This document shows positions 55,645 to 58,600 of a stretch of 64,000 nucleotides of DNA, piece by piece. The position numbers and the translations under genes were made by a program. The stretch lies in NCBI RefSeq assembly GCF_054482595.1, contig NZ_CM137008.1; one strand, given 5' to 3'. Every line of letters starts with the position of its first letter. Position 1 is the stretch's first letter. The notes under the pieces are model-generated. The model made no database searches, was not told the DNA's origin, and saw only the letters and a list, made by a program, of their open reading frames with translations.

Positions 55645-58600
55645 CTTGTAAAGCCTTTATCGTTTTTTTATGCTCTGGATTAATATAATCAATACATCTA
55701 TTTGAGCAATCTTGTGTTAATGGACATGTCAACCCATGTTCATTTACAGCCAAGTCTTTTTTATTATCTTCAATCATCTCAGAATGGGATAACTTTACTT
55801 TTCTGCCGTACATACCGAACATATTTAACCCGTAATCTCTAATCTCTTTTTCATAACCCAGCCCTTTCGCCGATCGGCTAACACCAGCGTCATTTAATTT
55901 AGACACTCGACAAAATGCCATACAATGGAAAAATTGATCAGTCCCACCTAAATTTAATCTCTTCATATCATCATAAGTATCAGATAATATATCCCATGCT
56001 CTTTGATGGTTTAGTTGTTCTTTTTTTCGCATTAACGCTACATCTGCAGGACTTAACCCTAATGGATCAATACCATTCACCGGATACGCATACAGACTCC
56101 ATCCCCCCGCCAGCCCAATCGGGTCCTGAGTAATATATCGTCCCAGCAACGGATTGTAGTACCGGTTCCGGTTATAATACAGCCCCGACTCCTCATCATA
56201 CTGCTGCCCTGGCAGACGGTACGGCTGATACACATGATGCGGGTTCTCCTCATTAAGCTGGTTGCCCCATTCATCATATTCCGCGCTCCACGCCGTATTG
56301 CCGTCTTCGCTGATAAGCGCCAGCGGCAGTCCCCGGTGGTCGCAGTGATAAAGATGAGCTTTTCGCGCCGGTGTGTATTCCGGCTCCACCTGTCTGGCCA
56401 GTTGCTCCACCGTCAGCCCGCACTGCGCAAGCCACGCCCGGCTTTCACTGCTCACGCGGTCTGCCCGGATTTCTTCCTCCAGTCTGTCCAGCAGCCGCAC
56501 CAGTTCAGCCGGAAATACCACGCCGTGCCCGTCCTCGCTCCCTTCCTGCTGCAGCTTCTCCGCCAGGCTGCGGCGCTGCGCTTTCTCCCGCTCGCCGTTG
56601 TCTGTTTCGATGCGGATGAGCGGCGCGAAGCTCCCCGGCTGATATACCGTCTGGATACGCGTGGTGTCGGTCTGTACCGTCGTCAGCCGGTCGCCGTCCC
56701 ACCCGTACCACGTCACCTCCGGTTTCCGCGACAGCGACATCCATCCCGTCAGGTCACGCTCGCGACGCCACACCCGTTTCCCTGTCCGGCGACCCAGCGG
56801 GTCGTAAAGGTATCGGCTCTCGACCAGCGGCTCCTCATATTGGATACGGATGTAATGGACCAGGCGGTGCAGGCTGTCGTAATGGTAGTGATGGGTGCGC
56901 TCGTCGTCCGTCCGTATCACACCCGCCGGGATGCGGTCCGTCTTCTCCGTCAGTCTGCCGTATTCATCGTAGTGGTAAACATAGTGCGCATCCTTCGCGA
57001 TGCGGTTATCCGGCCACACTGTGAGGGTACTGTCCGGGTGCAGCTCCGGGTCCGGCAGGCGGTTTCCCGCCGGGTCGGTGGCATACGGGATGCGGATGTC
57101 CAGGTCCGGTGCGAGGGTACGCACGCTCTCCAGCCTGCCCGTGGCGCTGTAGCCGTATTCCCGCGTCTGTCGCGGGCCGCTGATGCGCACCAGGTCGCCG
57201 TTGTCATTCCACCCGTAGTCACGGTCATACACCAGGCTGTTCAGGTGCTGGCTCTGTAACTGGCCTGCGGGGGTGTATGTGCTGGTCAGTTTATATGCGG
57301 CATTACTGCCTGCCATGCTGCCAAAGCTGCGCACCGTCTCCCGGTGCATGCGGTCGCGCGTGTACTCCAGCAGCGGCGTGTCGCCAAGCTTCATGCCCGC
57401 CAGATAACCGCTGCCGTAGGTCAGCCACTCCACCGGCGGCAGGCTGTCCGGCGTGACGCGGTTTGCCAGCCCCTGTTCGTTGTAGGCGTGTGTTGTCTCA
57501 TGCTGCCACAGCAGTTCCCCCGTCTCCGGGTTCTCCACCGTCTGCCGTTCGCCGGTCAGGCGGCCCTTATCGTCGTAGCCGTAGTGGACAGCGACACGGT
57601 GGCCTTCGCTCAGGTGGCTGATGTCTGTCAGCCAGCCGTGGTCATCATACTGCCACTGCTCTGCCGGTTCGCCGTTCACCGTGCGGTGAGTGATACGGTC
57701 CGATTCATCGTAGTACCAGAGGGTGACAAGCCCCTCATCTTCACTCTGCGTGAGTTTTCCGGTCAGGTCATAATGATAACGCTGCGTCCGCCCGTCAAAG
57801 CCGCCCTGCTGTACCAACCGGTCCAGCGCATCGTAGCTGAAGTCGCTGTGGCTGCCGTTCTCGTTAGTCAGACTGATGACACGTCCGGCAGCATCGTACT
57901 CCATACTGCGCGTCAGCCCGCCCTGCGTGGTGCTGACCGCCTTTCCCCACGCATCGTACTGTGTCTCGCTCCGGTTGCCGTCCGGGGTGATAACGGCAGT
58001 CAGGTCGCCTGCGGCGTTGTACTCATACTGCGTTTCACGGCCCTGTGCGTCTTTCACCGAGGTTAACCGGCCACGGTTGTCATAGTGGCGGTAAAGGCTG
58101 ATACCTTCCTCGCGGTGAACCGCCGTCATCTGGCCGAAGCGGTCGTATTCATAGCGGGTCTGGTAGCCCGAGCAGTCGGTGAACGCCAGCAACTGACCGT
58201 AGCGGCTCCACGTCATCTGCCGGGTGCTGCCCGTCGCATCTGTTGTCGTGGCCGGTAATTCACTGTGCGCATCATCATAGCGGTAGCGTACTGTCTCCCC
58301 GCTGCGCGATGTCTCCGTTACCAGCCTGTCCAGTTCATCATATGCCCGGCGGCTCTCCAGCCCGTCCGGGGACACCACCGCCGTCAGCTGGTTCCCGTCG
58401 TTATAGTAAAATTTCGTCTCCCGCCCGTCCGGTGTGGTGATGTCCGTGATATCGCCGGACACCACATTCAGACCGTACTCTGTCCGCCGTCCCGCCGCGT
58501 CCGTCTGCGCCGTGAGCCTTCCTGCCGCGTCATACCCGCTGTGCGTGACGCTGCCATCCGCCAGTTCTTTTTTCACCACCCGTTTCAGCCCGCCTTCACC

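Follow-up and report, generated by a model that had tools for sequence, protein, structure and literature searches.

Introduction

Rhs genes combine conserved cores with variable tips that carry distinct GC signatures (Jackson et al. 2009, BMC Genomics 10:584, PMC2935791). In the C-terminal displacement model put forward in that work, dissociated tips are accompanied by core fragments of variable extent, and tips are exchanged by homologous recombination in the core (PMC2935791). Among the toxin families that are relevant here, the bacterial relatives of serum amyloid A (prok-SAA) have been predicted to act on the head groups of lipids or lipid carriers (Burroughs et al. 2025, bioRxiv 10.1101/2025.01.14.632903). 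The closest described locus is the rhsD element of E. coli K-12, in which rhsD, with a DUF4329 tip, and ybbC are followed by the orphan ylbH, which carries the same tip as the gene described below, and by a broken ybbD.

Here we describe an rhs gene at the same chromosomal position, within a window of 64,000 nucleotides, in which the composition of the sequence changes abruptly close to the 3' end of the gene. This composition seam is the long-known junction between core and cassette of E. coli Rhs elements, and as such it is already known. The features of the locus are collected in Table 1; the gene lies on the minus strand, and its upstream side therefore has the higher coordinates.

Table 1. 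Features of the rhs locus, listed in the direction of transcription of rhs
Feature	Coordinates	Strand	Basis or remark
AT-rich leader (27% GC) upstream of rhs	59828..60218	.	No 300-500-nt composition step in the window is sharper than those at its edges
Full-length rhs, 1400 aa	55625..59827	-	ORF; occupies the rhsD site of the E. coli chromosome
GC-rich conserved core: YD-repeat shell and Rhs-associated core/plug domain	56079..59827	-	GC 0.633, GC3 0.75
Rhs-associated core domain, aa 1184-1258, with the second DPxGL at its end	56054..56278	-	TIGR03696, E 7.7e-20; coordinates converted from residues
Mosaic transition inside the core end	56177..56201	-	Informative-site tables
First DPxGL motif, DPIGL, aa 1235-1239	56111..56125	-	Sequence
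GC change-point (best fit 56078)	56064..56104	.	Maximum-likelihood fit; homology to non-cognate Rhs cores runs out at the same place (56075-56090)
9-nt in-frame deletion between ATCCG direct repeats	56080..56086	-	Alignments
Second DPxGL motif, DPLGL, aa 1254-1258, predicted autoproteolytic cleavage motif	56054..56068	-	Role from Jurenas 2021 (PMC8636562)
AT-rich toxin tip, aa 1259-1400, 142 aa, SAA-like (prok-SAA / Lipocone) helical domain, as modelled	55628..56053	-	GC 0.354; profile and AF2 model
Immunity-like gene, YbbD family, 163 aa, intact	55153..55644	-	NCBIfam NF011298, 372.8 bits (cut-off 326)
AT-rich non-coding continuation of the cassette	54787..55152	.	Composition; lower boundary 54783
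Remains of a second rhs 5' end with ATT in place of the start codon, cut short at the ylbG remnant	54690..54786	-	79% identical to 59731-59827

Results

The rhs gene and its chromosomal position

The product of the gene matches the NCBIfam profile RHS_core (NF041261; 1261 positions) with 2718 bits against a cut-off of 2000, over residues 1-1258. Pfam assigns it RHS_repeat (13 matches), DUF6531 (residues 46-123) and RHS, and the YD/RHS repeats are covered by 13 stretches of PF05593 (E 2.8e-73) and seven of TIGR01643. Pfam reported no PAAR domain in the product at a threshold of E <= 0.01, and rhs is not flanked by T6SS genes (vgrG, hcp), its neighbours being ybbP on one side and ylbG/mnmH on the other. 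The order ybbP / rhs / ylbG mnmH allS is that of K-12 and of strain XH990, the latter being 99.9% identical, while the core is 98.5% identical to the rhsD core of SC492 and 93.9% identical to that of K-12. The relic of a second rhs 5' end beyond the cassette is annotated as a partial hypothetical protein in both K-12 and XH990.

The composition step within rhs

A first-pass annotation of this DNA had reported a break from GC-rich to AT-rich sequence inside rhs, and both a sliding GC profile and a change-point fit confirm it. The profile runs at 0.57-0.72 over 56300-59700 and at 0.28-0.39 over 54800-56100, and a two-segment maximum-likelihood fit over 55153-59827 places the best change-point at 56078, with 2-lnL support from 56071 to 56104 (56064-56104 under a narrower fit). 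GC is 0.346 below this position and 0.633 above it, an improvement of 124 nats over a one-segment model, and the gene as a whole passes from a 63% GC core to a 35% GC tip. The site originally given for the break, 56050-56070, was roughly right, the fitted position falling 10-30 nt upstream, at the edge of that interval. In gene direction the change-point precedes the codons of DPLGL by 10 nt, and these codons are themselves AT-rich and tip-specific (GAT CCA TTA GGG TTA). The AT-rich run cited from the tip, TTTTTTATTATCTTCAATC, lies at 55757-55775, and the many antisense ORFs ascribed to the GC-rich core are indeed present, at 60-341 aa. The far end of the AT-rich block had been set at 55153, the end of the immunity-like ORF, which is some 370 nt too short: the block continues to 54783 (support 54770-54819) and in its entirety extends from 54783 to 56078.

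Codon positions record the same step at the seam. The core has a GC3 of 0.75, compared with 0.27 for the tip and 0.28 for the immunity ORF, and the 34 other long ORFs of the window range from 0.42 to 0.68; core and tip both lie beyond the range of the host genes, in opposite directions. At the 1-kb scale the seam ranks first among the composition steps of the 64-kb window (+0.27, about 4.8 SD), and at the 500-nt scale it ranks third, the larger steps being the 5' end of rhs (59826) and the AT-rich leader (60218). A GC step at DPxGL is also seen in Hafnia, at other loci and with unrelated tips.

It could be argued that such a step arose in place, either from the different amino acids required by YD repeats and by a helical toxin or from selection for AT, as in silencing by H-NS. 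Amino-acid composition does contribute to the step, because GC1 and GC2 also drop across the seam (from 0.66/0.48 to 0.44/0.35), and the leader of rhs is likewise very AT-rich. However, it is the third, synonymous positions that change most, and the cassette remains at about 35% GC both as a non-expressed orphan and within Hafnia, where the locus has 47% GC. Moreover, tip and core have demonstrably been reassorted among genomes. We therefore consider constraint in place to be a very improbable origin of the step.

DPxGL motifs and a deletion at the seam

The boundary of the tip carries the demarcating motif PxxxxDPxGL, here P1249-VNGI-DPLGL1258. The aspartyl autoprotease signature consists of two DPxGL motifs about 17 residues apart; the gene has both motifs but departs from the signature in their spacing, which is 14. 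The spacer measures 17 residues in K-12 ylbH, O157, O166 and EC974, and 17-18 in distant relatives. The shorter spacer results from the 9-nt deletion, which drops three codons (PLN/LNP), leaving YAYPVNGI in place of the YAYPLNPVNGI of other genomes. It is possible that a 14-residue spacer impairs autocleavage, and with it the release of the toxin.

A junction of this kind might in principle be a chimera of the assembly or a sequencing artefact. We found no support for this and reject it, its probability being practically nil: the exact junction, including the deletion, recurs in 14 of 5426 genomes, these being independent and complete, and the joint between core and tip is covered to at least 80% in 2646 genomes.

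The toxin tip and its immunity gene

Searches with the single tip sequence remained below threshold. Pfam SAA scored 22.5 bits (E 1.6e-4), below its gathering cut-off of 30.8, NCBIfam returned nothing, and the best phmmer match in the PDB had an E-value of 0.18, so that the identification of the tip required both a family profile and a structural model. The tip family has 93 representatives, which are mostly C-terminal and which, where upstream sequence exists, mostly follow DPxGL-like motifs. Pfam SAA is matched by 25 of 31 family members (best 1.2e-17), and the family profile retrieves SAA chains from the PDB at E 1.5e-11 to 5e-5. The AF2 model of the tip (pLDDT 96.4, pTM 0.89) places helices at residues 2-33, 39-51, 56-78, 90-108, 116-123 and 129-137 and shows a four-helix cone with a short fifth helix. 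The top seven Foldseek matches in the PDB are all SAA proteins (SAA1/SAA3), with a probability of 1.00 and target-normalised TM scores of 0.69-0.75.

Across 31 sequences of the family, D39, H43, C44, C48, E70, D73, D96, D100, N104, G107, C116 and C120 are invariant. They include the predicted active-site set, namely H43 in helix 2, E70/D73 in helix 3, D100 and N104 in helix 4, and G107. The sNxxGR motif of the SAW clade reads VNEHGL in this tip, its final arginine being replaced by leucine. As judged from the profile and the modelled fold, the tip is an SAA-like Lipocone domain in which the predicted active-site residues are conserved.

The start of the immunity ORF overlaps the stop of rhs by 20 nt, and its product has an N-terminal transmembrane helix at residues 8-26 (Kyte-Doolittle maximum 3.03). 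A local Pfam scan of the immunity protein gave no family; precomputed annotations list YbbD_head (PF26610) for its relatives, and a YbbD_head gene comes after the homologous tip in Hafnia and in L014/L015. A separate promoter for the immunity gene is unsupported, a scan of 54600-56300 for promoters and terminators having yielded 4 promoter-like sites against 5.8 expected. The tip may be a catalytically active bacterial homologue of SAA that cleaves the head group of a lipid or lipid carrier in the periplasm and is neutralised by the membrane-anchored YbbD, a prediction about which we are somewhat sceptical.

Distribution of the cassette

Of 5426 complete E. coli genomes, 2862 contain the tip/immunity cassette, nearly always as a single copy (22 genomes have it in two places). 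Among 57 of them taken at even spacing, it was annotated as attached to a full-length gene in 14 cases and as an orphan in 33, with 10 unclear. It occurs, at 96-99% identity, as a silent orphan behind DUF4329 and ybbC in K-12-like genomes, and it is joined to divergent core alleles in O157:H7, O166:H15 and EC974. The stretch 56082-56599 of the window aligns to the K-12 rhsD core and 55100-56324 to the ylbH region. Relatives with 55-86% identity, each with a YbbD_head gene behind it, are found in the rhs orphan arrays of Hafnia alvei and of another genome, at unrelated chromosomal sites. The pattern is that of a polymorphic toxin/immunity system: the same tip is joined to a full-length gene in some genomes and stands as an orphan behind a core stub in others, and the immunity gene lies directly downstream. 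The reassortment across genomes, the orphans and the opposite extremes of GC3 lend support to the first-pass proposal that the tip and the immunity ORF have a history decoupled from that of the core.

Position of the exchange

The crossover map rests on a small sample, a base-level alignment of four attached alleles and three orphans. The alignment was confined to a shared block of 243 nt, the core-end homology that the K-12 orphan retains upstream of the break; extending it by 600 nt upstream was uninformative, because the sequence upstream of the orphan is ybbC and not core. Homology to non-cognate Rhs cores stops at the break (Table 1). Upstream of the mosaic transition, the window is of the K-12/SC492 rhsD type (93 of 93 sites identical over 56210-56302), and downstream of it the sequence is of the core-end type of the O166:H15 attached allele (126 of 130). 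Sites between 56177 and 56201 are of mixed type, and the transition is thus a zone and not a point. Other alleles change type elsewhere, EC974 at about 56244 and O157/O166 at 56290 or further upstream, and among genomes with this tip the transitions lie 100-230 nt further into the core than the break.

The break had been proposed as the likely point of recombination. Homology does end there, but the transitions lie upstream of it, inside the core-end homology, and the two observations together suggest that the break is the distal limit of the exchanged cassette, with the crossovers probably falling in the conserved core end, as the model of Jackson et al. (2009) proposes (PMC2935791). If, alternatively, the break were itself the recombination site, with site-specific or illegitimate recombination exchanging tips precisely where DPLGL is encoded, one would understand why nucleotide homology between different cores gives out 7-22 nt from the DPLGL codons and why the GC change-point falls there as well. 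The deletion between ATCCG repeats also indicates that the seam is capable of microhomology events. Such a mechanism is, however, difficult to reconcile with orphans in which 243 nt of homology to the core end precede the break, and with alleles of the same tip that change core type at differing positions upstream of it. There is no conserved recombination-site-like repeat or recombinase gene: a repeat search turned up neither inverted repeats nor recombination-site-like ones at the seam, and the direct repeats it gave were limited to the 97-nt relic of an rhs 5' end and two short YD-repeat matches within the core. As the published model also invokes homologous recombination in the core (PMC2935791), we give swapping at the motif itself only a slim chance.

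A different route to the attached state is an intrachromosomal deletion, in which the end of a K-12-like rhsD core recombines with the 243-nt core fragment of the orphan. The orphan would thereby be activated, with loss of the RhsD tip and of ybbC, and the direct repeat that such an event requires exists in K-12-like genomes. Koskiniemi and colleagues are said to have described a comparable activation of an orphan in Salmonella in 2014. The core of the window is identical to the rhsD type down to 56210, and the orphans of SC492 and ESBL15 share 99.4% identity with the window's tip. We first assumed a simple deletion from a K-12/SC492-like ancestor, and downgraded it because the informative sites at 56080-56200 fit the attached allele of O166 type and not the orphans: here the window differs from SC492/ESBL15 at 10 of 130 sites. 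Furthermore, the core-end type of the window, which is present in 189 genomes, is attached in 59 of the 60 sampled. Both the deletion and the activation of the orphan through it are consequently unlikely. Allelic replacement, or an unsampled orphan, may instead have given rise to the allele; a candidate orphan with a core end of the window's type occurs in strain Ch1 (H134).

Discussion

The break is very probably a boundary between modules in a polymorphic Rhs toxin gene that occupies the rhsD locus of E. coli. The conserved, GC-rich core would encode the YD-repeat shell and a C-terminal plug with two DPxGL aspartyl-protease motifs, and the AT-rich cassette, starting about 10 nt before the second of these, would consist of the tip, its cognate membrane-anchored ybbD and a non-coding tail. 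This cassette appears to be passed on as a unit, independently of the core, and in K-12-type genomes it corresponds to the silent ylbH/ybbD orphan behind RhsD's own tip and ybbC. We propose that exchange occurs by homologous recombination within the conserved core end; the gene in the window is a mosaic of this kind, with rhsD-type core as far as 56201 and, from 56177, a second core-end type together with the tip. This specific recombination route seems to us reasonably probable. At the protein level, the tip would be enclosed in the Rhs shell, set free when the protein cleaves itself behind DPLGL, and passed to neighbouring cells. There it would most plausibly attack the head group of a lipid or lipid carrier on the periplasmic side of the membrane, which is also where YbbD, itself anchored in the membrane, would neutralise it. 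The biochemistry of the toxin set out here is a prediction that we put at a little below an even chance.

For annotation, the locus indicates that this strain carries a cassette that is silent in K-12 on an rhsD core, where it is predicted to be expressed, along with an intact ybbD. It also corrects a common shortcut, in that the GC break marks the end of homology, with the crossovers apparently lying upstream in the conserved core end. Two modest leads emerge, one being the resemblance of a very common Rhs tip of E. coli to SAA and the other the rare in-frame deletion between the autoprotease motifs. If the SAA-like tip is active, it would provide a tractable E. coli toxin/immunity pair with which to work out SAA biochemistry, and the rare allele with the 14-residue spacer could be a natural variant with impaired toxin release.

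With regard to known systems, the features described in the model of Jackson et al. (2009) are all seen at this locus, which shows no essential difference from the model and adds base-level examples of differing crossover positions for a single tip. Photorhabdus laumondii Rhs1 (Jurenas et al. 2021, PMC8636562) has a 17-residue spacer between its motifs, as opposed to 14 here, and a toxin of another family. The comparison is with the autoproteolysis of Photorhabdus Rhs1 and of the Tc-toxin TcC; in the present gene, cleavage is predicted from the motifs. The prok-SAA proteins of Burroughs et al. (2025) share with this tip the SAA-like helical fold at the end of a polymorphic toxin and a membrane-associated immunity protein, as well as a histidine in helix 2, acidic residues in helix 3 and, in helix 4, an aspartate with an asparagine four residues on. 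They differ in the arginine of sNxxGR, which is leucine here, and in that the immunity family linked to prok-SAA toxins has four conserved cysteines that are missing from YbbD; ylbH, YbbD and RhsD are unnamed in the main text of that study (bioRxiv 10.1101/2025.01.14.632903).

The K-12 rhsD element (rhsD-ybbC-ylbH-ybbD-ylbG) resembles the locus in its site and flanks (ybbP; ylbG, mnmH, allS), in its core (94%) and in the cassette, which is 96% identical to ylbH/ybbD, and the relic of the rhs 5' end and the ylbG remnant are common to both. In contrast, K-12 expresses the DUF4329 tip and ybbC, its copy of the cassette being silent and its ybbD broken, whereas the window lacks DUF4329/ybbC and has the cassette on a full-length core, an intact ybbD of 163 aa and the 9-nt deletion at the seam. 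A parallel organization is known from CdiA-CT/CdiI with its VENN boundary, where a conserved delivery body, a boundary peptide motif and an exchangeable toxin/immunity cassette likewise occur together, and where orphan arrays also carry a stub of upstream homology, although the protein family, the secretion route and the boundary motif are different.

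A full-length rhs gene at the rhsD site

The sole long ORF at the composition step is a minus-strand rhs gene (55625-59827) whose 1400-aa product scores 2718 bits against the RHS_core equivalog (cut-off 2000), as expected of a full-length enterobacterial Rhs protein. It contains thirteen RHS repeats, DUF6531 and, at residues 1184-1258, an Rhs-associated core domain that terminates in a ten-residue sequence. The neighboring genes, ybbP and ybbA upstream and a truncated HTH/transposase-like ylbG followed by mnmH and allS downstream, identify the site as that of E. coli rhsD, and the closest match is strain XH990 (99.9%). 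Downstream there is also a relic 5' end of a second rhs gene, in which the ATG has become ATT and which is truncated at the ylbG remnant. The abutting ylbG-type ORF suggests an old IS-mediated truncation of this second gene.

A sharp composition step between core and tip

The sharp GC step that the first-pass annotation had described within rhs was borne out, both in the GC profile and in GC3. In a 200-nt sliding profile, GC is 0.57-0.72 over ~56300-59700 against 0.28-0.39 over ~54800-56100, and a two-segment likelihood fit to 55153-59827 places the change-point at 56078 (0.346 versus 0.633 GC on its two sides; +124 nats over a single segment), with a support interval of 56071-56104 (a narrower fit gives 56064-56104). 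The step had been placed at 56050-56070; the fitted position sits at the edge of that interval and, given the position of the DPLGL codons, the step starts ~10 nt upstream of them in the direction of the gene. Compared with every position of the 64-kb window it ranks first at the 1-kb scale and third at the 500-nt scale, where two steps exceed it, one at the 5' end of the same rhs gene and one at the far side of the AT-rich leader. No 300-500-nt step in the whole window is sharper than those at either end of this 390-nt leader (59828-60218; 27% GC).

The drop at the seam falls mainly in synonymous sites. Since the GC3 values of core and tip both lie outside the range of the other long ORFs, both modules depart from the host's composition, one upwards and the other downwards. 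The accompanying claims of a T-rich run and of many antisense ORFs in the GC-rich part also held: the run lies at 55757-55775, and the core has many long antisense ORFs. Tip and immunity ORF are AT-rich as described, but the block does not end at 55153; it runs to 54783, ~1.3 kb in all. This lower edge falls at the former start codon of the relic rhs and mirrors the step at 59826.

Features and third-position GC around the rhs seam
Feature	Position	Strand	GC3	Remark
rhs core			0.75	
DPIGL motif, earlier in gene	56111-56125	minus		
DPLGL codons	56054-56068	minus		
Toxin tip			0.27	
Immunity ORF	55153-55644		0.28	
Relic of second rhs 5' end	54690-54786	minus		79% identical to main gene's start
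Truncated HTH_29/HTH_28 transposase-like ORF, counterpart of K-12 pseudogene ylbG	54231-54638	plus		abuts relic rhs start
34 other long ORFs in window			0.42-0.68	

Probable exchange within the core end

A separate origin of tip and immunity ORF from the core was supported, and non-cognate Rhs cores (those with other tips) align to the junction only as far as 56075-56090, the position of the change-point. When nine junctions are aligned together, nucleotide similarity fades across the YxYP(LNP)xxxx linker. DPxGL is kept at the protein level yet is tip-specific in its codons, and there is no alignable sequence beyond GL.

The break had also been proposed as the recombination point, and here the comparison of alleles speaks against the proposal: copies that share a tip change core type at differing sites upstream, within the core end. 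Orphan copies of the tip in K-12, SC492 and ESBL15, which stand behind another tip, retain 243 nt of core end upstream of DPLGL, and informative sites in this block place the switch variably among same-tip alleles. Over 56210-56302 the window and the K-12/SC492 rhsD core agree at 93 of 93 positions, and the window switches type between 56201 and 56177; EC974 switches near 56244, and O157:H7 and O166:H15 differ already at 56290 or further upstream. Past its switch the window fits the O166-type core end (126/130 positions) better than the orphans (120/130). We count 189 genomes with this core-end type, and in 59 of the 60 that were sampled a full-length gene carries it. From this type and the pattern of informative sites, we infer that the window rhs is a mosaic made by homologous exchange within the core end. 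The composition break would then be the distal edge of the exchanged segment, with the crossover elsewhere, in the core end; because four attached and three orphan copies make up the base-level sample, this placement is an indication rather than a map. Simple deletion from a K-12-like ancestor disagrees with the orphans sampled.

Exactly at the seam (56080-56086), nine bases between two ATCCG direct repeats are missing from the window and from XH990; this in-frame deletion turns the YAYPLNPVNGI of other genomes into YAYPVNGI. Of 5426 complete E. coli genomes, just 14 share the junction when probed with a 40-nt sequence spanning it, each time within a full-length gene. The spacer between the two DPxGL autoprotease motifs is thereby 14 residues, versus 17 in other E. 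coli copies and 17-18 in distant relatives, which we regard as a minor lead.

A predicted SAA-like toxin tip and its YbbD partner

Clustering at 50% leaves 93 representatives in the family of the tip (residues 1259-1400). Most form the C-terminal end of their proteins, and those for which upstream sequence is available mostly follow DPxGL-like motifs. Twelve positions are invariant in a 31-member alignment (D39, H43, C44, C48, E70, D73, D96, D100, N104, G107, C116 and C120). The family profile matches serum amyloid A (SAA) chains in the PDB (E 1.5e-11) and 25 of the 31 members match Pfam SAA; the window tip alone scores under the Pfam cut-off. Its AlphaFold model is all-helical (pLDDT 96.4), and the seven top PDB fold matches are SAA1/SAA3.

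In Rhs proteins generally the shell surrounds the tip, and an aspartate of the second DPxGL motif drives cleavage directly after this motif (Jurenas et al. 2021, PMC8636562). Among the polymorphic-toxin tips of the Lipocone superfamily are bacterial SAA-like domains (prok-SAA). Their predicted activity is cleavage of lipid or lipid-carrier head groups, and the immunity proteins predicted to counter them are located in the membrane or periplasm (Burroughs et al. 2025, bioRxiv 10.1101/2025.01.14.632903). The predicted catalytic His, Asp and Asn are retained in the window tip, and YbbD has a single N-terminal transmembrane helix. It seems likely that the tip would be an active toxin at the periplasm or membrane, with YbbD neutralizing it; the SAA-like tip is likewise a minor lead. 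As annotated, the immunity ORF overlaps the rhs frame by 20 nt at its start (55625-55644), and a second in-frame ATG (MVIFIF...) lies just past the rhs stop.

Comparison with known Rhs loci

In every junction examined the step recurs, with GC of 0.47-0.60 at the core end, 0.32-0.47 in the tip and, where measured, 0.29-0.33 in the downstream gene. It is seen with unrelated tips in E. coli, and with homologous tips and a YbbD_head gene in Hafnia alvei and GCA_003324795.1, at unrelated chromosomal positions. In GCA_003324795.1 (L014, 6308-9667; L015, 1-5809) the SAA-like tip and YbbD_head gene lie within an orphan-cassette array, alongside neighbors that include Ntox16-like and TseH/Imm58 modules. 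C. W. Hill's group reportedly described the core/extension GC contrast for E. coli K-12 rhs elements in the early 1990s. Rhs cores and tips are decoupled, with distinct GC signatures, and dissociated tips bear core fragments of variable length, with homologous recombination in the core (Jackson et al. 2009, PMC2935791); C-terminal domains and shell also differ in GC content and codon bias (Jurenas et al. 2021). The step is nothing new: the gene family, the locus and this property of theirs were all known already.

The cassette of tip, ybbD and non-coding tail is very common: 2862 of the 5426 complete E. coli genomes have it, nearly all of them once and 22 in two places; by annotation, an evenly spaced sample of 57 comprised 14 copies attached to a full-length gene, 33 orphan and 10 unclear copies. 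In K-12 (L001, 8161-8651) and Hafnia (L012, 4558-5048), ybbD is broken into ORFs of 86 and 57 aa. In O157:H7 (L008, 1966-2226) only the 86-aa ORF is annotated, though the tip is attached to a full-length rhs; either the 86-aa YbbD_head is enough for immunity, or the toxin is inactive or undelivered in that strain.

The spacer of P. laumondii Rhs1 is 17 residues, three longer than that of the window gene. At the K-12 site the order is rhsD (with a DUF4329 tip), ybbC, ylbH, broken ybbD, a relic rhs start, ylbG and mnmH, where ylbH is an N-terminally truncated rhs fragment and ybbD is two short ORFs. Pairwise alignment matches window 56082-56599 to the end of the K-12 rhsD core and 55100-56324 to the ylbH-ybbD region, and the AT-rich sequence of the window is therefore the silent orphan cassette of K-12. 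In the window, by contrast, this cassette is joined directly to a full-length core, and its YbbD is intact at 163 aa (373 bits against NF011298, cut-off 326), whereas that of K-12 is broken.
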